Below are positions 1 through 12,070 of a stretch of 64,000 bases of DNA, one piece after another (the first letter of the stretch is position 1; the number at the start of each line of letters is the position of its first letter). The stretch lies in assembly GCA_027262695.1 (NCBI GenBank), contig GCA_027262695.1_4722.1; one strand, 5' to 3'. The position numbers were made by a program, and so were the translations under genes. Under the pieces are notes generated by a model. It had not been told where the DNA came from. It worked only from the letters and a program-made list of their open reading frames with translations, and searched no databases. Source of the DNA: a phage.

Positions 1-490
1 CAACTGGCCAGTTGAAAAGGATTGTTTTATTAAGACAAACAATTGGGGTAATTTCGCCGATACTCCGTATCTTGACTGAGGGGCAATTGCACACATACGG
101 AACAAAAACATCAATATCGTTGGTCGCTTCTTCAAGCATGCTAGCATACGCCATTGCTTCGGGACGATCGGTGAGATGAATAACAGCATAGACGATATCG
201 TCTTTTAACCACGCACGTTTCACTCGTCCTATAACACGATTGATGTCTACAATAACTCTCTGAGCTTTCATCTCCCATTTTACTGCATCAGTACCACCCG
301 CAACCACGTTCGGTTTATCCGTGTTTACACGATGAAGGAAACTATTGATTATTTCCTCATCGATCTGGATATCCTTTCTCGCAAAATTCAACAACGGAAT
401 AACGAACTCATTGTTACCGCACTTCTCTGCTCCGCGAATGATAGGAGTACACTTCTTGTTCTCATCTGATCCCCAGATAACTTTAGTCAT
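1..490 (-). CDS. hypothetical protein, N-terminal part only (gene runs off the window start)
   Basis: Hand translation from ATG at 490 is open through position 2 (MTKVIWGSDENKK...); not in ORF track because truncated by window edge. Confidence 0.5.
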   Translation of the reverse strand, partial: MTKVIWGSDENKKCTPIIRGAEKCGNNEFVIPLLNFARKDIQIDEEIINSFLHRVNTDKPNVVAGGTDAVKWEMKAQRVIVDINRVIGRVKRAWLKDDIVYAVIHLTDRPEAMAYASMLEEATNDIDVFVPYVCNCPSVKIRSIGEITPIVCLNKTILFNWPV

Positions 491-523
491 TTTCTGTTTC
501 CTTCTTGGGTTTTGCACAAGTTT

Positions 524-1138
524 CTAACGGCGTTTTGTACCGACCTTCCCATTTCGATGGTCATCAAGAATACGCCATTCTTCGAACAGGAGTTCGGCTG
601 CGAAATAACCTACAGCGATGCTGTCTATCGCATGCTCATCAAGATTCGCTAACACAACACCGTTTCTGGGTGTGATGTTCATGAGGTTCAACACTTTCTG
701 GCGAACATCGTCCTTACCAACACGGGACGTCATAATCCCAACAGCGCGTTTTGCGCTTCGGTTATCAACCCCTAAGAAAGACACCGTAGGGTCAAAATCG
801 ATAACCGTTGTCTGAATCGCTGAAAACAGCTCGCTGAGCGCCATACCGCTTTGCTTGAAACGACCGATGAATGGCGTCTCACAAGCGACCGCTTGCGGCT
901 GGTACTCTTGCAATAACGTTGTCAGCGAACGACGGTGTTCTTGGATACGTGCGGCACGATTACCGTATCCAAGCGCAATATCGCCATCGGGATCATATCG
1001 ACGTGAAGCGTGCCATGTCCCTGCATACAGCAGTTCAATATCTTCGACACGCACGTCCAAACGTAGTAACGACGCACCGAGTGTATCGGTGCCAGGGTCG
1101 ATTGCCAGAATATCGTAAGCGTATTCTGGTGGGATCAT
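524..1138 (-). CDS. RuvC-like Holliday junction resolvase
   Basis: N-terminal YDILAIDPGTDTLG resembles RuvC ILGIDPG catalytic motif; C-terminal DEHAIDSIAVGYF acidic motif; start at 1138 overlaps upstream stop as ATGA. Confidence 0.6.
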   Translation of the reverse strand: MIPPEYAYDILAIDPGTDTLGASLLRLDVRVEDIELLYAGTWHASRRYDPDGDIALGYGNRAARIQEHRRSLTTLLQEYQPQAVACETPFIGRFKQSGMALSELFSAIQTTVIDFDPTVSFLGVDNRSAKRAVGIMTSRVGKDDVRQKVLNLMNITPRNGVVLANLDEHAIDSIAVGYFAAELLFEEWRILDDHRNGKVGTKRR

Positions 1139-1950
1139 GGTGTTACAACAGCCTCTACTGACCATGGGAAGGTTTTCGCAACAACACCTTCCAGGAAGCG
1201 TTCAACTTCCGATTGCTCATACACCGAAAGCTTTTCGAACGGCGTTTGGTCTTCGGTTAAACCTACCGCATGAATAGGACCCAGGTCTTTAACCAGAGTG
1301 ACTTCGCCTTTAACGCCTTCGCGTTTAACGATGATCGCATGATCATTAACCTTGGGATCATACAGCACGCGCATCATGGTTACCGCGTCATCCGGTTCAT
1401 GACCGAAATCGATGGCAACACGAGCATTCGTCCCTTCATCATCCAGAAGCTTGCTCAGCGCTTTACAACGGTCTTCAATCCAATCCAACGCAACCACGGT
1501 TTCTTGGCGTAGCTGAACCTCAACTTCTTTTCCTTGTTCGTCGATACGTTTCACAGTAACAAAATCGTGTAATAGGCGGTCAGGAAGGAGGGAAGCAATA
1601 AGCTCAATGTTGGGTTCAGGTTTTTCGTTTTCCAGAATGATGGTCGCTTGTGCGTCCAGATGTTCTTTAAAACGGATGTAGCGCGTTAATCGCAGAACCT
1701 CGTCTTGGGATTTTGCGTCTTCGGGAATAATCTCCGTCATGACGTTATAAATCTTTTCAGCGAACGTCGGAATTACGGTGATTGTAATTCGTGCTGGTGT
1801 ACCGCGCTCCTGATACTCATCGGCTAACTTCTTGGCCATCCCGTTAAAATAGGTCTGGAGAAACGGTTGTTGTGTTAAAAACATTTTCTCCAGATCGGAA
1901 TAGCGATGCTTGCGTGCATGGCCTAGCTTCTTCATAGGCTTTTTCATCAA
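1135..1950 (-). CDS. hypothetical protein, between SbcC-like ATPase and resolvase; no metallophosphatase motifs seen
   Basis: 271 aa ORF, translationally coupled to downstream resolvase. Confidence 0.5.
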   Translation of the reverse strand: MMKKPMKKLGHARKHRYSDLEKMFLTQQPFLQTYFNGMAKKLADEYQERGTPARITITVIPTFAEKIYNVMTEIIPEDAKSQDEVLRLTRYIRFKEHLDAQATIILENEKPEPNIELIASLLPDRLLHDFVTVKRIDEQGKEVEVQLRQETVVALDWIEDRCKALSKLLDDEGTNARVAIDFGHEPDDAVTMMRVLYDPKVNDHAIIVKREGVKGEVTLVKDLGPIHAVGLTEDQTPFEKLSVYEQSEVERFLEGVVAKTFPWSVEAVVTP

Positions 1951-1968
1951 CAGAAATCCTTATTTGTC

Positions 1969-4425
1969 TTAAATTATCGTGACATGTTCGTTATACGTTT
2001 CGGGGAGAATGATGTTCGTTTTATCAAGAACCATACACTCGGCTTTACGGAATGATGCATGGTTAATAACATAGTGGCTGATGAACCACACTTGGCTTAC
2101 GCGGTGACCATCAACCAAACGACGAACAAAATCCATGGCATTAGATTGGTGCTGCGGATCAAATGTTGATGCGAATTCATCTAACATCAACGGATAATCC
2201 GTGAACCCTTTGTAATGCATCATCGCGATGATGAACGCGATATTGATAATTTCCTTTTGTCCCTTACTCCCATAAACAATATCTTTTCGCGGTGTCGGAT
2301 ACTTCTCGGTTAAAAGTGGAAAACGATAGTTCAATCCTTGCGCATCGATAGCACATGGGAGTATCTGAAGTTGGTATTCCCAAATACTCGCAATGATACC
2401 GTTCATGTACTCAACGAACGCGTTGATTGGACCAGCGATTGTTTCGGCAATCAGTCCGTTAGATGGACTTAACTCATCCAGAACAAGTTGTGCGTAACTG
2501 AGCTGTTCTTCCACCTCTTTTTGTGTCGTTTCCAACTGAACCAGAAGCTGCTGGTCGGTTTTAGCTTCCTGTAGTTGCTGTTCGACATGACTTATTCGGC
2601 GAACTGTATCAGACATCGCAGCACGTAACGATTTCGTGTAGAGGTGTTGCAGATACTCTAACCACAGTTGCGTTAACGCTTTATCGCTGTTATCAGAACG
2701 TACCTGATCTTCCATAATCGACGTAATGGTTTCCAATCTACCTTCCGTAGCTGTGATGGCTTGTGTTAACCGCTCAACGGTTGTTAACAACTCTGTCCTG
2801 TTCTTATAAAGCAATTCTCGACGTTGCTGTAACGGTTCAACATCAACCGCTTGTACCCGTTCGAGCATACCTTGAAGATGCTTCCGTTCCTGTTCGGCTT
2901 GTGTGTAACGCGCAAGTTTCTCAAACGCAAGCAACCAATCGTTAATGATTCCAATGCTGCGGAATCCTAAACCGTTTTTACGTCCTTCTTCCAACAGATT
3001 ATCCCACATGGGTTTAATGGCGTAATAATCCTTCGTCCAACGCGTTAACTGACGATGTTGTTCCATCCAAAGCGTATAGCGCTGCACCTTCTCATTAAGT
3101 TCGGCTAACGATTTCTCCTGTTCTTCAACCCAAGCACGACCCTTCTGAATACGTTGTTCAATACCCGCTTTGCTGGTCTTTTCTGTCTCACCAACATGAA
3201 AGCGATAATTGCATTTTGGACAGCTGGTCTGGGGTTGATGGTTAAGGTGGTCGAGGTGCGCTTCTAAATCGGCTAACGCATGTTTCGCGTTACGCAAACG
3301 CATTCTTGCTGCCTCTTCCTCCTTGATGTAAGCTTCAGCGTCGTAAACATGATAGGTGTTGTCGGTATCAATCCATTCTTGGAGTAATTCCGTTAACGGA
3401 GCCTGAACTTGTGTGAGCTGTTGTAAACAAACCGCGGCGTCCAGATTCATTGTTAAAAGCTCACCTGGATGATCTTGCTGAAGTTGTTCATCCAAACAGG
3501 CAAGGCGGGCTTTAATCTGATCGATATCGCCTTCTCCAGACTGTTTCAACTGGTCAAGGATATTATCGATACCCAACAGCTCGTCAACCTGACTTTCGAG
3601 TTTCGCATTCGCATTCGCGAGTTGCTCTCTTAGTTCAGCCAGATTCTGCTGTTCTTGTTGCGATGTTCCTCCTTGGTAACGAACAACCGCGCGAAGAAGT
3701 TCGCGATTAAAATGATGGGCACGTTGTGCGGATTCCAGAAGCTGTCGTTGATCAACGTCGCTATCGAATAACGGCAATCCCATCATCGCTTCGAGCGCTG
3801 AGCGTTGCTGCTTTAACTCTGCTTCCAATCCCTGGTGGTCGGTTCCGGTGTATTTCGCTTCAATACGCTGTGATGTTTCAACCAACTTATTCAGTGTATG
3901 CTCATTCACCGCTTTCAGTGAACGTACTTGTTGCTTAACAACCTGAAACAACTCGAGCGCATAATCGACGTTAACCGGACATATCTGTGTTAATCGTTCG
4001 CGGCGTTTCATCGGTCCCATTTCGGTGAACTGATAAGCCGTTTCGTAACCTAGCAACAAACGAATGGTGTCATCATTAAGTTCGAAATGTTCTTCAATCA
4101 GTTTCCATTGGGCCGGTTGTGTACCACCACCGTTCAGGTTCTCGCTGTCGTTAACGTAGAACTCATGCTTAAACCCTTTTTCTAAACGACTGATAAGACG
4201 GTATTGCTTATTACGGTGTTCGCAGCGGTACTCGTAATACCCGTCTTTATCAAAATCAGCACGCTCAGGAACGGTCGGATACAGCAAAGGCAATAGACTA
4301 CTCTTACCGGAACCATTACTGCCTAAAATGAGTTGTACGGGATTATCTGGCCGGATGACCAGCTCCCGAATCATCCCGGTATCAAAACGATTGAATCCAC
4401 GTAAGTGGAGATAGGTGCATCGCAT
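1969..4425 (-). CDS. SbcC/Rad50-like ABC-type ATPase with long coiled coil (recombination/repair)
   Basis: Walker A GSNGSGKSS near N-terminus, long Q/E/L-rich middle, C-terminal signature-like GSKGQKEI, Walker B YPLMLDEF, H-loop FISHY; start placed at ATG 4425 (AAGGA upstream), ORF extends to 4488. Confidence 0.65.
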   Translation of the reverse strand: MRCTYLHLRGFNRFDTGMIRELVIRPDNPVQLILGSNGSGKSSLLPLLYPTVPERADFDKDGYYEYRCEHRNKQYRLISRLEKGFKHEFYVNDSENLNGGGTQPAQWKLIEEHFELNDDTIRLLLGYETAYQFTEMGPMKRRERLTQICPVNVDYALELFQVVKQQVRSLKAVNEHTLNKLVETSQRIEAKYTGTDHQGLEAELKQQRSALEAMMGLPLFDSDVDQRQLLESAQRAHHFNRELLRAVVRYQGGTSQQEQQNLAELREQLANANAKLESQVDELLGIDNILDQLKQSGEGDIDQIKARLACLDEQLQQDHPGELLTMNLDAAVCLQQLTQVQAPLTELLQEWIDTDNTYHVYDAEAYIKEEEAARMRLRNAKHALADLEAHLDHLNHQPQTSCPKCNYRFHVGETEKTSKAGIEQRIQKGRAWVEEQEKSLAELNEKVQRYTLWMEQHRQLTRWTKDYYAIKPMWDNLLEEGRKNGLGFRSIGIINDWLLAFEKLARYTQAEQERKHLQGMLERVQAVDVEPLQQRRELLYKNRTELLTTVERLTQAITATEGRLETITSIMEDQVRSDNSDKALTQLWLEYLQHLYTKSLRAAMSDTVRRISHVEQQLQEAKTDQQLLVQLETTQKEVEEQLSYAQLVLDELSPSNGLIAETIAGPINAFVEYMNGIIASIWEYQLQILPCAIDAQGLNYRFPLLTEKYPTPRKDIVYGSKGQKEIINIAFIIAMMHYKGFTDYPLMLDEFASTFDPQHQSNAMDFVRRLVDGHRVSQVWFISHYVINHASFRKAECMVLDKTNIILPETYNEHVTII

Positions 4426-4539
4426 GCTATGATAATCCTTCTTCGATACCTTCTGAACCACGGGTTCAGAATGCGAAGCTGAAGCCATACTTCAGCGTTA
4501 TTTTCTATATCGTTATTTAAATCAGTAGGAGATTACAGC

Positions 4540-5628
4540 ATGAGCGACCTGGCAACAGACAATCGCACAAAAGGGAGTCAGCTAGCTCCAGACAACAACG
4601 TAAGCGTTTTCCGTATCTATGCCTTGGGTACTGTTGCTGCCGACTTTTCCAATAAAAGTCTGGAGGAAGATCCTAACCAAACGCTGGAGGTCTTTCTTGA
4701 TGAGATGATGTCAGGCGCTGATGGGAAAGTTGAAGCGGCGGGAAGCGTTAAAGAAGTCAGTGCAACAGACGCTCAAGGGAACAGTTATACGGCGAAAGCG
4801 GCAACAACAACCAGCGTACAGTGTTACTGGTTACCTTTCGGTAGTAACCGGATGACAGCACCTAACTTGAGGAAAGGTCAGCGTGTGGTGGTCTGGCGTA
4901 CTGCTGATGAAGAACAACTCTATTGGCAGCCCAAAGGAGGGGATAGTGAGCTGATGACCATGGAATCGGTTATCCTCACCGTCAGCGCACGTCCTAGCGC
5001 TAAGAAGGACCGTAAATCGATTTCAACGGAAGACTGCTATTACCTAATGGTTGATACCTTTCTTAAGAAAGCGGTTATCGGTACAAGCGCACAGCTTGGT
5101 GAAGTTACCCAAGTCTACATGGAACTTAATCTGGACGAGGGTTACCTACAGGTTGCGGACAGCGTCCATCAAAATCTGCTGTTACTCCATTTCGTTGAAC
5201 ATATGCTGCGTTATCAAAACCAGGACGACAGCATCATCGACGTGACAAAAAAGAACATCACATTCCAGTGCGAGGATACGCTCAAAGCCATCGCTAAGAA
5301 CGATATCCGAATGAAAGCAAAAAACATTTATACCGAATGTGAGAACTTCGAGCGTACCAGCAAAACAGAAAGCGTTACGAGTCAGAATGTTTCTTTGAAG
5401 TGTGACCGCTACACCGCGCAAGTATCAGGACAAACCACGTTCAAATGTCCTAATACGGTATTCACCGGAGCTGTAAGCTTCACAGGTGAGGACGGAAACA
5501 CGATGACGTTGAATGGGAACTTCGTACATGTTGCGGGCTCTTGGCGTTCACCAACCGGAACAAACGTATACACCCACGATCATGGTGGTGTAGATCGTGG
5601 TAGCGGTCGTACAGACCCGTTCCAATAA
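4540..5628 (+). CDS. hypothetical protein, possible virion protein
   Basis: 362 aa ORF with GGAG-type RBS (gtaGGAGattacagcATG), divergent from SbcC-like gene. Confidence 0.55.
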   Translation: MSDLATDNRTKGSQLAPDNNVSVFRIYALGTVAADFSNKSLEEDPNQTLEVFLDEMMSGADGKVEAAGSVKEVSATDAQGNSYTAKAATTTSVQCYWLPFGSNRMTAPNLRKGQRVVVWRTADEEQLYWQPKGGDSELMTMESVILTVSARPSAKKDRKSISTEDCYYLMVDTFLKKAVIGTSAQLGEVTQVYMELNLDEGYLQVADSVHQNLLLLHFVEHMLRYQNQDDSIIDVTKKNITFQCEDTLKAIAKNDIRMKAKNIYTECENFERTSKTESVTSQNVSLKCDRYTAQVSGQTTFKCPNTVFTGAVSFTGEDGNTMTLNGNFVHVAGSWRSPTGTNVYTHDHGGVDRGSGRTDPFQ

Positions 5629-5650
5629 ACAAAAAAGAAATGCAACACAA

Positions 5651-5684
5651 CCTCCTTCCCCGGCCTGATGGCTAGGGAAGGAGG
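5651..5684. terminator. GC-rich hairpin, CCTCCTTCCC / GGGAAGGAGG stem, at convergent gene ends
   Basis: 10-bp inverted repeat read directly; member of recurrent hairpin family. Confidence 0.5.
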
Positions 5685-5699
5685 ATTATGGTTTATTTA

Positions 5700-6089
5700 T
5701 TAACGGATTGCGTTTTGGATGATTTCTTTTCCGATCGTAATCAAAGCAGGTATCTGTACTGCGGTTGCGCCTTGATGACGAAACGCGGTCGTTAATGCGG
5801 TATCGATGCTCACAGCACGTCCGTGAAGACGATCGAAATAGACTTGAGTGATAGCAGCGGCATACTCTTTTCGCTGTTTCTTGGTTTGGTTTACCATCGT
5901 CGCACTACTACCGACGATGAAATAAGCGATTAAGAAGAATGCGGCTGACCGTGAGCCGGGTAGAAAGCCTTGGCGTTTAGGAAGCATTTCACAATCACGA
6001 ACAGTAATACTGTTCGTGAGCTTTTCCATGTCGACATGGCATAATTTTGCATAGGTGTGAAGATGATGGGTAAAAGTTGAATTTAACAT
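5700..6089 (-). CDS. hypothetical small protein with one hydrophobic segment
   Basis: 129 aa ORF; AAFFLIAYFIVGSSATMV looks like a transmembrane helix. Confidence 0.4.
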   Translation of the reverse strand: MLNSTFTHHLHTYAKLCHVDMEKLTNSITVRDCEMLPKRQGFLPGSRSAAFFLIAYFIVGSSATMVNQTKKQRKEYAAAITQVYFDRLHGRAVSIDTALTTAFRHQGATAVQIPALITIGKEIIQNAIR

Positions 6090-6193
6090 TTCTTTCCTCG
6101 GTTACAATGAGTTCAATGTATGGCGTAAACGTCACAGAACGACGTATAACAGTTTGTTTTGATTTCTAAGGTGTTTCCCTATCTAAGAGTGAA

Positions 6194-6556
6194 TTAAAGC
6201 GTTCTGAAGAGTTCTGTGGCGTTCTCAGCACGTAAACATGCTTCGTTCAACAACTCCGCTAACAACTTCGATCTAACTTCAACGAATGTCCTGGTACGAT
6301 GCTCCCAGTCTAAACGGATGGTGTAAGTATCATCCATGTTTCTGTGGTCAACAACAGATGTTGAACAACGTGTTTCTTGTTTATTCACAGCACTCCAGAC
6401 ATCACGGATAATCGTCATGCCTTTCTTGGTGCACGTAAACGTCAAGATACAACGATTATTCGCTGCTTCTTCACAAACGTGAATAAATTCGCTTCGTAGC
6501 GATGAGGTCTTGGTCAATCGATCGATAGCAAGCGATAACCCAATACGTTGTTGCAT
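6194..6556 (-). CDS. hypothetical protein
   Basis: 120 aa ORF in same-strand gene array. Confidence 0.45.
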   Translation of the reverse strand: MQQRIGLSLAIDRLTKTSSLRSEFIHVCEEAANNRCILTFTCTKKGMTIIRDVWSAVNKQETRCSTSVVDHRNMDDTYTIRLDWEHRTRTFVEVRSKLLAELLNEACLRAENATELFRTL

Positions 6557-6557
6557 A

Positions 6558-6971
6558 TCAAATTCCTTCTTTCAAAATCTCATTAAGGCCGTCTGCAACC
6601 GCGTCCAAATGGGCATCCATATCCGTTACGGTGTCAGCGGTAACTGTCCAGACGTGCTGTATTAATGTCTCACCATTCGTACATTTTACCATTTCCATCG
6701 CCAACTTTGTTTGTCCTGACGATGGTGAGATCTCATTGCTCCGCCAAAACGCAGCCTCGAGTAATGTTTTACCTAACGCTGTACACACAAAAGTAAATTC
6801 TACTTGACCAATACCTACCACCGAAGCGGATAACGGTTGGATATGTTCGCGCAGCTTATCATCTTCACGTAGGAGCAGCAGTGTACGATGTAAGTGTGTA
6901 CGGTGGGTAACAATAGCGTCGTAATGACCGATGCGTACATCGGCTACTGATTCAGGCCAGTTAATTTTCAT
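6558..6971 (-). CDS. hypothetical protein, paralog of 6987-7430
   Basis: Shared motif ALGKTLLEAAFWRSNE vs QTGKDVLENIFWSAEH. Confidence 0.5.
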   Translation of the reverse strand: MKINWPESVADVRIGHYDAIVTHRTHLHRTLLLLREDDKLREHIQPLSASVVGIGQVEFTFVCTALGKTLLEAAFWRSNEISPSSGQTKLAMEMVKCTNGETLIQHVWTVTADTVTDMDAHLDAVADGLNEILKEGI

Positions 6972-6986
6972 GTTCGATTCCTCGTA

Positions 6987-7430
6987 TTAACACTGTGTTC
7001 CATTCGATAAGCGGGTGGTATCAAAACGATCCAGTTGGTGTACAATGCTATTAGCAACACGATGCAAATAGTGTATTTTGTCCATTCGTGAAATCGCAGA
7101 AATCGTCCAGCAAGCCTCTGACGTCCAATAGGTGCCGTCTTCACTAAGGCTAACGTTATAAACTAACTTCGTCATCACATTTCTCGCCTTATGCTCAGCA
7201 GACCAGAATATGTTTTCTAACACATCCTTCCCCGTTTGTGAAAACACGAACCCAAGCTTCACGTCGAGGTCGGATGCTTCAAGATTAACGAAGTGAAGAT
7301 GATTCTCCAAAGGCGCAAAAGAGGCTAAACGTTCCAGCGCGTTTTGCAGCGTGGGATGATCGAGCTTTTCGAGATCATCCACAGGTTGTTCAGGTACAAT
7401 CGCGATCGATTTACAGAATTTAATTTCCAT
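6987..7430 (-). CDS. hypothetical protein, paralog of 6558-6971
   Basis: 147 aa ORF; tandem duplicate. Confidence 0.5.
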   Translation of the reverse strand: MEIKFCKSIAIVPEQPVDDLEKLDHPTLQNALERLASFAPLENHLHFVNLEASDLDVKLGFVFSQTGKDVLENIFWSAEHKARNVMTKLVYNVSLSEDGTYWTSEACWTISAISRMDKIHYLHRVANSIVHQLDRFDTTRLSNGTQC

Positions 7431-7460
7431 GGTAGGTTCCTCTTGATAGATGGTAGTAAC

Positions 7461-7480
7461 GGGGATACCGCGGTATCCCC
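7461..7480. promoter_or_regulatory. perfect 20-bp palindrome GGGGATACCGCGGTATCCCC (terminator or operator)
   Basis: Read directly; intergenic between 7488-7958 and 6987-7430; GGATACC/GGTATCC core recurs at 23135-23152. Confidence 0.4.
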
Positions 7481-7487
7481 TAAGTCT

Positions 7488-7958
7488 TTATAACACGCCC
7501 CAAGCCATATTGGGTACAGGCTCGTTACGTTCGATGTAATACATCAAGCGTTCTTTAAGTTTGGTTAACGCCTCAGCAACGATGTTCTCCATGGCAATCA
7601 CCTTTCCAATGTAATCCATGGTATCCTGCCACGTAAACCATTCGACGGTATTGACGATGTAAAGGGTTTCATCGTCGTCGGTCATGACCTTGGCATTTTC
7701 ACGATGATCGCGGGTCGCGTATAACGGTGTTTTTAGATTCGCTCTGATACGTACCCAGAGCTTCTCCAGGAAATCGCTCGGTTGACTATCTGTCGTGATG
7801 ATAAGTTCACTCCGTACTGAACGCTCTCCACGCTTTTCAATAACAAGTAAACCATCGTAAGTGATGTTCATCAAGTTACGAAGGTCATCATTGCTATTCC
7901 AGTCTTTTACAACAGCAGGAAGTTGGCTATTGTACTCTTCAGGTAATCTCTTAAGCAT
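7488..7958 (-). CDS. hypothetical protein
   Basis: 156 aa ORF, 8-nt overlap with upstream gene. Confidence 0.5.
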   Translation of the reverse strand: MLKRLPEEYNSQLPAVVKDWNSNDDLRNLMNITYDGLLVIEKRGERSVRSELIITTDSQPSDFLEKLWVRIRANLKTPLYATRDHRENAKVMTDDDETLYIVNTVEWFTWQDTMDYIGKVIAMENIVAEALTKLKERLMYYIERNEPVPNMAWGVL

Positions 7959-8403
7959 CGGTTTCTGCTCCTATATCACGTTTGAGTTCGGCGACCAGTT
8001 TGTCGTAATGGTCTTTTATCACATTCGCCATAACGAATTGCGCTTTTCTCACTAGCTGCTCATTGGCATCACTGAATGTAAAATACTCTCGCACTTCAAC
8101 CGGATGTGATACGCCACCGATATCGTAGGCTTTATTCGATGTGCGTTGAGCGATCACTGGGAGCGGTTTCGCGGCGTTCAGCGCAGTACAGATTTCCGTA
8201 ACGAGTTCTTGAATTTGGCTTTTCCCTTCGATGATAACGCTGCAACGATAAACATCCACCTCGTTAAGTTGTTCAACAACATCCGCCTTGATTTTGAATT
8301 GACCTACAAGCGCGCTTACTAAAGTGCGGTGCCAATTGTTCACCACTCCAACCAGCAATGGATGATTCTCAAGATCTCTTCTGTTCATTTCTGAGCTCCT
8401 CAA
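7951..8403 (-). CDS. hypothetical protein
   Basis: 150 aa ORF; GAGGAG RBS upstream. Confidence 0.5.
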   Translation of the reverse strand: MRSSEMNRRDLENHPLLVGVVNNWHRTLVSALVGQFKIKADVVEQLNEVDVYRCSVIIEGKSQIQELVTEICTALNAAKPLPVIAQRTSNKAYDIGGVSHPVEVREYFTFSDANEQLVRKAQFVMANVIKDHYDKLVAELKRDIGAETDA

Positions 8404-8425
8404 TCGCTCTATAACAAACTTTTAG

Positions 8426-8450
8426 AGGAAGGGAAACATATTCCCTTCCT
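8426..8450. terminator. hairpin AGGAAGGGAA-acata-TTCCCTTCCT
   Basis: 10-bp perfect inverted repeat between same-strand genes. Confidence 0.45.
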
Positions 8451-8467
8451 TGAGTTAGTTTATTGCG

Positions 8468-8743
8468 TTATACGTCTTTTCTGTGCGCGTAGAACGCCTT
8501 CGTTCCGTTGTTGATCGCCTCAACCACATCCGGGGTTAACACAACGGCGATATCGCTTCGAGATGACGGTGCGTAATACCCTTCACCGTTCTCGGTAATC
8601 AGGCGATAACGGACTAAGCCTATGTTCGGTTCAACGCGTACCACTCTTTCGAGTTTGTACTTGATGATCTTCGTCAGGCCGATAGTCTCTGATGCGTAGA
8701 TGGCTTTATAAACTTTGTTCTTTGCTGTCGTTTTCATCAACAT
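8468..8743 (-). CDS. hypothetical small protein downstream of paralog A
   Basis: Start chosen at ATG 8743 (AAGGA 10 nt upstream); ORF track extends to 8812, overlapping the upstream gene. Confidence 0.4.
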   Translation of the reverse strand: MLMKTTAKNKVYKAIYASETIGLTKIIKYKLERVVRVEPNIGLVRYRLITENGEGYYAPSSRSDIAVVLTPDVVEAINNGTKAFYAHRKDV

Positions 8744-9599
8744 GGTTTCTGTTTTCCTTGGTTTGTTGTGGTCCCAGGTCGGAGATATCCCAACGGATAT
8801 AACCAACATCACGGATTCGCTCGGCTGTTTCTTCGGATTGTGGATTACGACTGATAACCGGTAGCCATTCCCCTTCTCGGGTTATCTTAACTTCGGTGAT
8901 CTGTAAGCTCATGTTCCAACGAACGTCATAAACCAGCGCGTAACCAAGAGGATGAACAAGCCCATCTTGGTTATACATCTTCAAAAGACCTCTTACATCT
9001 TCGCTACGAAGTGATTTCATGGCTGGACGTACGCGTTGAAGTCTCTTTGTGATATCGTATCCCAACTTAATATCCTTCCAACCCGTCATGACGTAAGGAA
9101 CAACGTTGCGGCGACGGAGTTGATGGTTGTGAGTGGTTTCTTCGGCGGTAAGATGTACCCAACCGAGATCGCTGTACGCCACGAACCGCGCTCCTTCTCC
9201 ATCGAGCACTGTGTGCTCATCTAACGCTGCTGCAACACCATGGCCTGCGTAATACGACGGAAGAACGTTCAGCATTTTAATACGGCTTTCTTGACCGGTA
9301 TGGTCAGGGTCGATATGCGCGTAGTAATAATTACGGCTTACCGGACGACCTTCCGCCATACATCCACGGAAGACAGGGTCCTGCATTCCAAGCGGATGGT
9401 AATACGCGAGCTGTTGCTCGTCACCTTCCCCGATGACCAACAAACGATCTTCACGACTTGGTGTGCTAGGATCTTTCACCGTGATGTAGGTAACAATCAC
9501 TTTCAGATTGTCTAAAATGTCCTGTGGAAGTTTCTCTAAATCCCGTGCGTCGTAAATACGATTAACAACAACGTTTGCAATGTGTTTTGGTAAGCTCAT
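8706..9599 (-). CDS. hypothetical protein, tandem paralog A (YYHPxGMQ / DLGWxHL / GYxRWDISDL family)
   Basis: 297 aa; shares YYHPLGMQ, SDLGWVHL, RRNVVPYVM, HPLGY, GYIRWDISDL with the two neighbouring ORFs. Confidence 0.6.
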   Translation of the reverse strand: MSLPKHIANVVVNRIYDARDLEKLPQDILDNLKVIVTYITVKDPSTPSREDRLLVIGEGDEQQLAYYHPLGMQDPVFRGCMAEGRPVSRNYYYAHIDPDHTGQESRIKMLNVLPSYYAGHGVAAALDEHTVLDGEGARFVAYSDLGWVHLTAEETTHNHQLRRRNVVPYVMTGWKDIKLGYDITKRLQRVRPAMKSLRSEDVRGLLKMYNQDGLVHPLGYALVYDVRWNMSLQITEVKITREGEWLPVISRNPQSEETAERIRDVGYIRWDISDLGPQQTKENRNHVDENDSKEQSL

Positions 9600-9679
9600 T
9601 TTAGATCTCTCTTTGTTATCGGTAAAATAAATAACGGCATAAATGGGACATAACTGTCCCCGTGTTAAATATCAACTGT

Positions 9680-10522
9680 TCACGCTTTCAAGTCTGAAAT
9701 ATCCCAACGTACGTAACCTGTACGCTCAATGTCGTCAACCAGTCGCTCGGTTTGATTTTCAACGCCAACGACGGGCACCCAATTTAAACGCCAGCGTCCA
9801 CCGACATTAACCTCAACACGCTGCAGATCTTCATTCCAACAAACCCCATTCGGTCTCAAAAAGCCCATCGGATGGATGTAGTCCTCATCGTAATCTTTCA
9901 ATAGCGCGAGAATATCGCTTCGGCTATAAGTCTTCACGCTTGCTAGATGTACGCTTTGTAGCTTATCACGCAGACCCCAACCGTACTCACTATCACGCCA
10001 TTCAGGCATGACAACCGGCAGTACATTCCGATGACGGATGTATTTTGCCGCTTCAGCAATATCAGCTGGGAGATGTATCCAACCTAAATCGCTGTTAGCG
10101 ACAAAATCAGGACTATCCATTTCATGGATGTAACGATCGTAAAGCGTAGCAGCGAGTCCTTCAGCAAGCACGTTTGTTGGAAGGAGGCAGTTGGCGCTTA
10201 TCTTGAAATCGAATACATCGGCATCAGGATCCACGTATGCGTAAAACCCGCGCGCAAAAGCACCGCCATGCTCTTTGAAGTAGTATTGGAACACAGCGTT
10301 TTGCATTCCGATGGGGTGGTAGTAAGCCAACACACGTTGTTCGCCGTCCGTGATTTCAATGAGCCGATCTTTCGGCTTCGGCCAGGTGATCTTCTCAACA
10401 TCGCAAACGCTGACGATCTTTCGTAGATTCACCTTGATATGTTCCGGGAGATGCCCGATTTCATTTTCATGATAAACACGGGTGATGACGTGATGAATAA
10501 CAGATTGTGGTTTAGCTGTCAT
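9680..10522 (-). CDS. hypothetical protein, tandem paralog B
   Basis: 280 aa; YYHPIGMQ, SDLGWIHL, HRNVLPVVM, HPMGF, GYVRWDISDL. Confidence 0.6.
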   Translation of the reverse strand: MTAKPQSVIHHVITRVYHENEIGHLPEHIKVNLRKIVSVCDVEKITWPKPKDRLIEITDGEQRVLAYYHPIGMQNAVFQYYFKEHGGAFARGFYAYVDPDADVFDFKISANCLLPTNVLAEGLAATLYDRYIHEMDSPDFVANSDLGWIHLPADIAEAAKYIRHRNVLPVVMPEWRDSEYGWGLRDKLQSVHLASVKTYSRSDILALLKDYDEDYIHPMGFLRPNGVCWNEDLQRVEVNVGGRWRLNWVPVVGVENQTERLVDDIERTGYVRWDISDLKA

Positions 10523-10554
10523 TTGACGTCTCCTTTTCGTTTGTTGGTGATGGT

Positions 10555-10854
10555 TTAGGGTTTAGGTTCCGTTTTGTATTGTGCGAGTAATGCGTTGATC
10601 TGCTCCCGTTGTTCTTTTAAGCATGTGGGAAGCTGGTCTTCCCGTACCGTTCCGATTTCCAACGTGATGTACCAACGTTGTTCGGAAGCCTGCCATTGAA
10701 AACTGCTCTGTAACCGAAGGATGTTGGGATCGCGTACCTTGCTTGCGCTGTAGCGATCGAACCAATCCAGATAAGCGGCTTTTCCTTCCTCGTCGGCAAC
10801 GTAACGCTGCACGCTGTTCTTGCCTTTGTTCTCGTATCCCGTGATGCGGATCAT
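10555..10854 (-). CDS. hypothetical small protein coupled to paralog C
   Basis: Start at ATG 10854 forms ATGA overlap with stop of 10851-11627. Confidence 0.4.
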   Translation of the reverse strand: MIRITGYENKGKNSVQRYVADEEGKAAYLDWFDRYSASKVRDPNILRLQSSFQWQASEQRWYITLEIGTVREDQLPTCLKEQREQINALLAQYKTEPKP

Positions 10855-11627
10855 GCGAACGTTTCTCCTGTAACGTGTTGCGGATAGCGTAGCATGGTAA
10901 CATCCCATTGTACGAATCCCTGCTGTTGGAGTTGTTGCATAACCGCTTCAACGTCTTGTCCTGGATGCGCAACCGGCAACCAACGTGTATCCAGCACCTT
11001 CGCTTCAAGGCGGGCTTTGCGCTTGTTCCAACGTACCTCGCTGATCCATGCGAAGCCAAGCGGATGCACCACCTGCGGGTAATGCACGCGCAGCAGGTTC
11101 TTCATCCGGCGAAGGATTGCAAGCCTGGCGTCAAGCGCGTATGGTTTCACCTGGTTAAGCTTGCGGGTGTAATACGTTCCCACGGTTTGGTTCGCCCAAC
11201 CAGGAAGCGCATGATGGGACCCAGCCTGCAATGTATTGTCCCCGTTCGTCTTCAACCAACCGTATTGCCCTGCCGCACGTCCTTTCTCATGTTCAACTTG
11301 TACCAGCTGATCGATGAACGAAGCATCAACGATACCGTGATCCACCTCATCCAACGCATAGCGCACCACCAACCCGCTCGCGCTCATCCGTGCGGGATGC
11401 TGGCTCCGATGCGCGTACCAAACCCTATTAACATGCAGCCGAGAAGGATACGTGTGTGCGCCACGCCAAAACACTTTTCCGAGAACACGTTCTCCACAGT
11501 ACACCATCACCCCTTTGTGATCGATTAGGTAATCCAACACCTTCATGCATTCCGCTTTGATGCTATCCGGTAATGCTAAGTATTCCTCTTCGGTGAACAC
11601 GGTATCAAAAATGATTTCATCGCTCAT
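10851..11627 (-). CDS. hypothetical protein, tandem paralog C (more divergent)
   Basis: 258 aa; HPLGFAWISEVRWN and GFVQWDVTML correspond to motifs in A and B. Confidence 0.55.
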   Translation of the reverse strand: MSDEIIFDTVFTEEEYLALPDSIKAECMKVLDYLIDHKGVMVYCGERVLGKVFWRGAHTYPSRLHVNRVWYAHRSQHPARMSASGLVVRYALDEVDHGIVDASFIDQLVQVEHEKGRAAGQYGWLKTNGDNTLQAGSHHALPGWANQTVGTYYTRKLNQVKPYALDARLAILRRMKNLLRVHYPQVVHPLGFAWISEVRWNKRKARLEAKVLDTRWLPVAHPGQDVEAVMQQLQQQGFVQWDVTMLRYPQHVTGETFA

Positions 11628-11677
11628 GGATAAAGTTCCTTGTTTTCACGTTGTTTGATTAACGTATTGATTTCTGA

Positions 11678-11712
11678 TGATGATAACATCGATATGTTTG
11701 CTGTTATCAAGA
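11678..11712 (-). promoter_or_regulatory. candidate sigma70-like promoter for the minus-strand early gene array
   Basis: On minus strand TTGATA, about 17 nt spacer, then GTTATCAT about 50 nt upstream of the 11627 start; by eye only. Confidence 0.25.
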
Positions 11713-11879
11713 AGGTAATATAGCCGTGAAAGGATTTGTATTACAGAAAGGATATTTGTTTTTAAGAAGGGACGATGGTTATCAGGAAGGAGGTTATCGG
11801 TAGGTGTAGGAGAGGGGATTTCAAGGAAGGTTTAAGAGGATAGTTATGTTGTTTAGTTGAGAGTTTGCTAAAATAGCTT

Positions 11880-12070
11880 TATCGTTATCTTAGTTTATCT
11901 GTGTATTCGTTAGGTATCTTGATTTATCTTCTTAATGATCTTTTCAAAAGTGTTATCATGGTTATCTTAGGTTATGTCTTAATTGTTTTATCTTGGTATG
12001 TTTAAGTTGTTTTAAGTTATCTGTTTATCTATCTTGTTATCTTGTTTAAGTTGTTAATGGCTTATCTTCA
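11880..12070. repeat. iteron-like cluster: at least 9 copies of TTATCT plus two copies of GTTTAAGTTGTT
   Basis: Direct repeats read from sequence inside a roughly 950-bp ORF-poor AT-rich island (11628-12584). Confidence 0.55.

Follow-up and report, generated by a model that had tools for sequence, protein, structure and literature searches.

The SbcCD complex of Escherichia coli, the gp46/gp47 proteins of phage T4 and the Mre11-Rad50 complex all combine an ABC ATPase, equipped with a coiled coil and a CxxC hook, with a calcineurin-like phosphoesterase as partner, and they process DNA ends and hairpins for recombination. In E. coli and T4, the genes of the SbcC and SbcD type are adjacent, whereas about 155 kb lie between them in Escherichia phage vB_EcoM_Goslar, a nucleus-forming jumbo phage of E. 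coli belonging to the Chimalliviridae. In this study, we analyzed a gene cluster at positions 524 to 4425 of a 64,000-nucleotide stretch of phage DNA (GenBank assembly GCA_027262695.1, contig GCA_027262695.1_4722.1; this whole stretch is called the window in the following). The cluster encodes an SbcC/Rad50-like ATPase, a middle protein, here named X, and a Holliday-junction resolvase similar to RuvC. A previous sequence-only reading had found no recognizable Mre11-type nuclease in this cluster, and had proposed that the partner nuclease is either highly diverged or replaced, or that the cluster is a non-canonical recombination or defense-related module. According to our analysis, the nuclease has neither been replaced nor diverged at this site; its gene is unlinked to that of the ATPase throughout the family, and in this phage is predicted to be encoded beyond the 64-kb window.

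The closest described counterpart of the cluster is found in Goslar itself. Bases 497-6000 of the window share 95.9% DNA identity with positions 6027-11536 of Goslar (NC_048170 / MK327938), and the window remains collinear with this genome to about 65 kb of Goslar, thereby covering about 5.5-65 kb of it. Compared with Goslar and two Goslar-like contigs from IMG/VR, the DNA identity of the window is 94-95%. The three open reading frames (ORFs) described by the sequence-only reading were all confirmed on the minus strand and correspond, with unchanged order and orientation, to Goslar gp012, gp011 and gp010 (Goslar 6054-9955). There, they are annotated as ‘putative SbcC-like protein’, ‘hypothetical protein’ and ‘RuvC’, respectively, and are oriented divergently from the spike gene gp013, which is common to both phages. 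At the amino acid level, the identity to Goslar is 100% for RuvC, 98.5% for X and 99.3% for SbcC, and the nucleotide divergence of about 5% between the two clusters is nearly all synonymous (synonymous vs. non-synonymous differences: 88 vs. 6 in the SbcC gene, 24 vs. 4 in X and 10 vs. 0 in RuvC). This synonymous excess shows that the three genes are real rather than chance ORFs and that all of them are under strong purifying selection. Very probably, the cluster belongs to the genes for DNA recombination and maturation in a Goslar-like phage of the Chimalliviridae. Since it is nearly identical to annotated Goslar genes and since an unlinked Mre11/SbcD gene is a known trait of chimallivirus genome organization, the arrangement as such is already known, and the residual novelty is the orphan protein X.

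The 818-aa protein is, as far as its sequence tells, a complete Rad50/SbcC-type ATPase with zinc hook. It matched phrog_77 (SbcC-like) with an E-value of 3.2e-74 and the Pfam family SMC_N with an E-value of 1e-9. Its start at position 4425 agrees with the Goslar annotation and with the N-termini of the aligned homologs; an alternative ATG at 4488 is possible in the ORF and is supported by no homolog. For the analysis of conserved residues, the window protein was aligned with its orthologs from phiKZ, 201phi2-1, RAY, Eowyn and a metagenomic relative. In this alignment of six genomes the Walker A motif, Q106, C402/C405, S720, D749/E750, D756 and H784 are invariant. The ATPase motifs listed by the sequence-only reading (GSNGSGKSS, SKGQ, LMLDEF and ISHY) were all located in the protein and belong to this invariant set, but the list had overlooked the zinc hook CPKC, which is the single CxxC of the protein and sits at the midpoint of the predicted coiled-coil insert. 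The two ATPase halves are separated by about 500 residues. In the regions aa 151-395 and aa 413-650 of this insert, 4-5 Pro and Gly were counted per 100 residues, compared with 10-13 in the heads; both regions are rich in E, K, Q, R, L and A, and their 3.5-residue hydrophobic periodicity is about twice that of the heads. Although crude, this composition and periodicity test supports two predicted arms of about 240 residues on either side of the hook, fitting a coiled coil. The solved structures of SbcC/Rad50 and SbcD proteins have a sequence similarity to the phage proteins that lies beneath the detection of phmmer.

For the partner nuclease, the window gave only negative results. The motif GNH[DE] is absent from every ORF of at least 100 aa in the 64 kb, the relaxed pattern G[ND]H[DE] also returned nothing relevant, and tblastn yielded no match in the window to SbcD of the phages pir03, RAY, Noxifer and Huxley. 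In the complete genome of Goslar, the same four chimallivirus queries had a single match, namely gp178 (162,609-163,751 on the minus strand, at 162.6 kb; locus L009, 2609-3751), with E-values of 2e-49 (Noxifer), 7e-38 (pir03), 1e-37 (RAY) and 4e-24 (Huxley). The protein, which is labeled just ‘hypothetical protein’ in Goslar, matched phrog_100 (SbcD-like) with an E-value of 1.8e-40 and contains the motifs NLSDIHF (DIH), SGDVFD, EGTNLHD, MHG and SGHIH. Simple motif scans miss gp178 because its third phosphoesterase motif is GTNLHD instead of GNH[DE]. The next gene downstream, gp177, resembles RAY gp239, which is the gene following SbcD in RAY. Two other Goslar proteins were considered as SbcC partner and rejected: gp157, a 185-aa Metallophos_2 protein of the small COG4186 type of phosphoesterases, and gp147, a DUF5051/Rv2179c-like exonuclease. 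Neither is an ortholog of the SbcD family of the related phages described below.

The large distance between both genes is not a peculiarity of Goslar. Homologs of SbcC were detected in 287 phage records, with full-length similarity at 24-28% identity, and homologs of SbcD in 314 phage records (tblastn with pir03 SbcD as query), the same genera having an SbcC homolog. For at least thirteen genomes found with both queries, the distance from one gene to the other is 70-170 kb. The positions (SbcC/SbcD, in kb) are 9.6/85.8 in pir03, 153.7/47.0 in Noxifer, 180.7/63.8 in 201phi2-1, 28.8/193.4 in RAY, 170.8/21.0 in SPN3US, 279/72 in FBKp24, 158.5/20.3 in Derbicus, 50.3/141.3 in Kc263, 72.6/245.7 in LAh10, 195.2/99.2 in Aphrodite1, 172.2/22.5 in ChrisDB, 172.1/21.4 in Kwan and 64.8/219.5 in SURPRISE13. 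Published annotations include SbcC as ORF69 and SbcD as ORF282 of PhiRP12 (PMC5468394), and SbcD as ORF115 of pir03 at 85.8 kb (PMC7765460). According to a comparative study, practically all jumbo phages have both subunits (PMC7824862); the paper on the RAY core genome does not mention the SbcC and SbcD genes by name. With an ordinary SbcD-like gene in Goslar and the separation as the rule across the Chimalliviridae, the proposal of a diverged or replaced partner nuclease found no support.

Outside the Goslar group, phiKZ orf165, 201phi2-1 gp250 and RAY gp23 are full-length homologs of the ATPase with 23-25% identity and an identical set of motifs including the zinc hook. As in the Goslar group, their structural or baseplate gene neighbor is divergent and SbcD is unlinked; in contrast to the window, unrelated small ORFs follow downstream of the SbcC gene, RuvC is encoded 10-26 kb away from it, and a homolog of X is missing. 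In phiKZ, orf165 received zero transposon insertions in a genome-wide screen and was positive in an antisense knock-down screen, and this core gene is reported to be essential; literature on ‘gp165’ mostly refers to the numbering of other phages. The SbcC-like gene is a vertically inherited core gene and not a defense island. This bears on the suggestion that the cluster is a defense or counter-defense module built on an SMC/ABC ATPase, similar to Lamassu, Wadjet or PARIS. Weak PADLOC matches of the ATPase to LmuB (8e-12), mad3 (2e-10), AbiLi, AriA and PtuA would be in line with such a module, but they represent generic ABC/SMC similarity and fall short of the phrog_77 match by over 60 orders of magnitude. 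Moreover, X and RuvC have no PADLOC matches, and an effector-type partner (LmuA, JetABD, AriB) is lacking. We therefore consider a defense-related module extremely unlikely, and this part of the sequence-only reading was not sustained.

The last of the three genes is predicted to encode a RuvC-like resolvase, as had been proposed before. Its product exceeded the cut-off of the Pfam family PF02075 (26.0 bits vs. 22.2) and matched phrog_159 with an E-value of 1.6e-21. Residues D14, E87 and D172 are invariant, and H169 is kept in six of six phage sequences. Together, D14, E87, H169 and D172 align with D7, E66, D138 and D141 of what we take to be the E. coli RuvC sequence. The bacterial/poxvirus-type RuvC proteins of PF02075 belong to the RNase H-like fold family, and the positions of the D-E-H-D tetrad are as expected in phage RuvC; compared with E. 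coli RuvC, the phage protein has C-terminal and internal extensions. The stop codon of X and the start codon of RuvC overlap as ATGA at positions 1135-1138, which agrees with the coupling of both genes noticed earlier, and the overlap is also present in Goslar and in locus L016. A similar coupling had been assumed for the ATPase gene and X. These are indeed closely spaced, but they do not overlap: depending on the start codon of X (ATG 1947 or TTG 1950), 18-21 nucleotides separate it from the SbcC stop codon TAA (1969-1971), and this spacer contains a Shine-Dalgarno-like sequence, AAGGA, of its own.

In chimalliviruses outside the Goslar clade, RuvC is found in a different context. In Noxifer, Deimos-Minion and Asesino (loci L019, L020 and L021), the gene lies within a block of virion structural genes. 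The RuvC start either touches a structural gene of about 290 aa or overlaps with it; this gene belongs to DUF7208 or DUF7941 and is unrelated to X. Such a location is uncommon for a resolvase and might result from late expression coupled to packaging. For the phiKZ subgroup, the use of RusA instead of RuvC has been reported.

The middle protein X has a length of 271 aa with the TTG at 1950 as start codon, and of 270 aa with the ATG at 1947, which is the start annotated in Goslar. It has a basic N-terminal tail (MKKPMKKLGHARKHR), an acidic body and an isoelectric point of 5.3, and the ratio of non-synonymous to synonymous substitution rates (dN/dS) relative to Goslar is 0.045. No match to X was obtained in Pfam (E<=1), including Metallophos, in PHROGs, in PADLOC or among the protein sequences of the PDB, and its homologs P0003 and P0004 also had no profile matches. 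The assumption that this protein is a standard Mre11/SbcD nuclease thus found no support in Pfam, PHROGs or PADLOC, and a test for internal repeats was negative. X was found in three lineages only. A word-indexed search of 5.8 G proteins gave 3 matches, a HMMER profile search of 1.84 G representatives gave 3 real matches and a fragment, the scan of IMG/VR recovered only 99%-identical copies, and a tblastn search of 50,697 phage records returned Goslar alone. The first lineage consists of Goslar-like phages with 97-99% identity, the second of a single 9-kb contig (P0003) with 45% identity, and the third of large metagenomic contigs of up to 255 kb (P0004) with 43% identity. In all three lineages, the gene order is spike gene (on the opposite strand), SbcC, X, RuvC and the thymidylate kinase gene (Tmk), with a variable gene before Tmk in two of the three. 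P0006 was discarded as a homolog, being a spurious repeat protein. Relatives of X were also sought among genes in comparable positions, and the gene preceding RuvC in Noxifer (DUF7208), Goslar gp009 and RAY gp24, the gene after SbcC in RAY, were rejected with hhalign probabilities of <=0.2%. Likewise, X is not a DUF7941 fiber protein, as it has no corresponding Pfam match and is not among the ten published DUF7941 proteins of Goslar.

The position directly downstream of SbcC is the one where SbcD-type partners are located in bacteria and many phages, and the lack of a recognizable family leaves room for a cryptic enzyme. X might take the place of Mre11/SbcD as partner of SbcC, as a nuclease that is either highly diverged or non-homologous. 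However, X lacks all five motifs of the phosphoesterases (D-x-H, GD-x-x-D, GNH[DE], H and GH-x-H), as the sequence-only reading had already stated for the Mre11 motifs, and neither a His nor a Cys is invariant in the X family, which speaks strongly against a metallophosphoesterase. The conventional SbcD ortholog of Goslar and the 314 related phage records also speak against this role, as does the absence of X from the chimalliviruses outside one small clade, which carry the same SbcC. Two AlphaFold2 runs resulted in models with predicted local distance difference test (pLDDT) values of 45.9 and 54.2, and fold searches with these poor models revealed neither a phosphoesterase or other nuclease fold nor a likeness to a known cofactor. 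A nuclease function of X is very improbable, and this reading is close to refuted. In summary, X is a clade-restricted, expressed orphan gene under purifying selection and very probably not the partner nuclease; its position was inherited within the Goslar lineage, in which the SbcC and RuvC genes are close neighbors.

The expression of X is known from proteomics of Goslar, in which gp011 was detected by liquid chromatography-tandem mass spectrometry (LC-MS/MS) with 4 peptides and 22% coverage (bioRxiv 10.64898/2026.04.21.720040, Table S4). The estimated copies per virion are 4.6-10.8 for gp011, 2-4.7 for SbcC (gp012), 1.3-3.1 for SbcD (gp178) and 1.5-3.4 for gp009. RNase HI, DNA ligase and DNA polymerase are found with these four proteins in a range of about 0.2-11 copies in the same table. 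The numbers for gp011 are in the range of the virion RNA polymerase subunit gp205 and the 3-copy tail spike gp13. They could indicate that X is a passenger unrelated to its neighbors, be it a virion or ejected protein of low copy number or a factor for interaction with the host. Also in favor of such a passenger, structural genes (spike gp13, DUF7941 genes) border the region, the neighboring gp009 slot is a hot spot of accessory genes, and chimallivirus genomes interleave structural and replication genes. However, the same dataset lists the non-virion proteins chimallin with 126 and PhuZ with 171 estimated copies, and replication enzymes with 0.2-5 copies. Low-copy detection is thus no proof of packaging. 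Since proteins from outside the virion reach more than 100 ‘copies’, what the detection of gp011 proves is its expression, but not its packaging. Either DNA-bound nuclear proteins were carried along in the Goslar preparation or cell debris was present. Furthermore, gp011 was neither modeled in the cryo-electron microscopy (cryoEM) structure nor discussed by its authors. A passenger role of X is a possibility to be taken seriously, yet one that we would not favor.

Alternatively, X could be a lineage-specific accessory or regulatory subunit of the recombination machinery, for example an adaptor for the loading or regulation of RuvC, or else a protein that pairs with the SbcC head. It could then be analogous in its role, not in its ancestry, to Nbs1/Xrs2 or other cofactors of Rad50-Mre11. 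The order SbcC-X-RuvC is kept in three lineages at an X identity of 43-45%, and the ATGA overlap with RuvC in the window, Goslar and L016; in addition, there is the strong purifying selection on X, the low-level presence of X, SbcC, SbcD and gp009 in the same Goslar sample, and the basic N-terminal tail, which could contact nucleic acid. Against an accessory subunit, the three lineages form one clade, so that the shared gene order may simply be inherited. Beyond this clade, SbcC and RuvC work without a homolog of X from genes 10-26 kb apart, and RuvC is preceded there by a gene for a structural protein of the virion. X also bears no structural or sequence likeness to a known cofactor. An accessory role of this kind is tentative and rather unlikely, and the chance that X has any functional tie to SbcC or RuvC is well below even.

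A mechanism can be outlined from the membership of the proteins in the families of T4 gp46/gp47, bacterial SbcCD and RuvC. The SbcC-type ATPase, with its two ABC half-sites, two arms of about 240 residues and zinc hook, would act as a dimer and work in trans with the ordinary SbcD/Mre11 metallophosphoesterase, whose gene is located at a distance of about 155 kb (gp178 in Goslar). In the manner of bacterial SbcCD and of gp46/gp47 from T4, this complex would clamp hairpins or ends of DNA for ATP-dependent resection, and the resected ends would feed recombination-dependent replication by a RecA/UvsX-like protein of the phage. RuvC, with its tetrad intact, would cut Holliday junctions and branches of the replicated concatemer ahead of packaging. 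As a weak guess, X may be an accessory factor or one associated with DNA, specific to the lineage and co-expressed with RuvC. Several points weigh against this interpretation. SbcD in the phage of the window, seen over 64 kb, is deduced from Goslar and from the pattern in the whole family. No biochemistry of a chimallivirus SbcC, SbcD or RuvC was found in the literature, so that the mechanism rests on homology. The low confidence of the X models would leave room for a cryptic enzymatic fold, and the persistence of X beside SbcC and RuvC at 43% identity, together with the ATGA overlap, gives room for a functional link. In its strongest form, such a link would make X a new cofactor of the Goslar clade that physically connects SbcC and/or the distant SbcD to RuvC inside the phage nucleus, where its task might be the targeting of junction or end processing, or that of an adaptor binding to DNA; we regard this as improbable.

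Table 1. Positions of the genes, motifs and spacer of the SbcC-X-RuvC region in the window.
Feature	Position	Strand	Basis
Gene in the Goslar gp009 slot, 5′ part, 163 aa, runs past the window start	1..490	-	32% aa identity to gp009 over 113 aa
RuvC-type Holliday-junction resolvase, 204 aa (Goslar gp010)	524..1138	-	Pfam + PHROG + tetrad
X, Goslar gp011-like, 270 aa	1135..1947	-	no known family
SbcC/Rad50-family ABC ATPase, 818 aa; Goslar gp012 / phiKZ orf165 ortholog	1969..4425	-	phrog_77 + Pfam SMC_N + motifs
SbcC C-terminal ATPase half	2071..2274	-	motif + alignment
SbcC H-loop ISHY	2071-2082	-	motif
SbcC D-loop STFDP	2155-2169	-	motif
SbcC Walker B LMLDEF	2173-2190	-	motif
SbcC signature YGSKGQK	2254-2274	-	motif
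SbcC zinc hook CPKC, aa 402-405, midpoint of coiled-coil insert	3211..3222	-	only CxxC in protein
SbcC Walker A (P-loop) GSNGSGKSS, aa 35-43	4297..4323	-	motif + alignment
Divergent SbcC/spike intergenic region, 114 nt	4426..4539	.	sequence
Baseplate/tail spike gene (Goslar gp13; phiKZ gp164 family)	4540..5628	+	phrog_3216 E 1e-61

On the upstream side, the cluster is bordered by the divergent spike gene (Table 1), whose Goslar counterpart gp013 was modeled as the trimeric baseplate spike in the cryoEM structure of Goslar. A divergent baseplate or structural gene adjoins SbcC also in phiKZ, 201phi2-1, RAY, Eowyn and the loci L015 and L016. The spike gene is the only neighbor of SbcC that is conserved in the whole family, and functionally it is outside the module. 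The spacer between both genes contains a perfect 7-bp hairpin, GCTGAAGCCATACTTCAGC, at positions 4478-4496, followed by a T-rich tail on the plus strand. In Goslar it is annotated as a terminator, which is odd between divergent genes, and the hairpin may be regulatory. A scan for sigma-70 promoters gave results no better than with shuffled sequence; such a scan is uninformative here because these phages use their own RNA polymerases.

On the other side, the gene in the gp009 slot lies downstream of RuvC with the same direction of transcription and had no family match in PHROGs or PADLOC. It evolves fast and is an allele of Goslar gp009 that has diverged strongly. The nucleotide similarity of the window to Goslar and to the two Goslar-like IMG/VR contigs ends exactly at base 497. 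While the adjacent RuvC, X and SbcC are 98.5-100% identical to the Goslar proteins, the gene product in this slot shares only 32% identity with its Goslar counterpart; one metagenomic lineage has a distant 163-aa relative in the slot, and in another the slot is empty. The slot between RuvC and the thymidylate kinase gene looks like a hot spot for the replacement of accessory genes. Beyond the spike gene, the region 6600-12000 has a mosaic similarity to Goslar, unlike positions 497-6593, which are about 95% identical throughout: blocks of 78-91% identity alternate with stretches without megablast match, and small hypothetical genes (Goslar gp014-gp021) are located there.

For the annotation of nucleus-forming jumbo phages, these results mean that an SbcC/Rad50 gene without an adjacent Mre11/SbcD gene is normal and should not be flagged as having lost or replaced its partner. 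Neither this point nor the orphan X will be surprising to a specialist. Nevertheless, gp011-like X is a conserved and expressed protein encoded between two recombination enzymes, and it is available in a genetically tractable chimallivirus of E. coli. If X should link SbcC or SbcD to RuvC, it would be the first accessory subunit of its kind in a viral RuvC or Mre11-Rad50 system.

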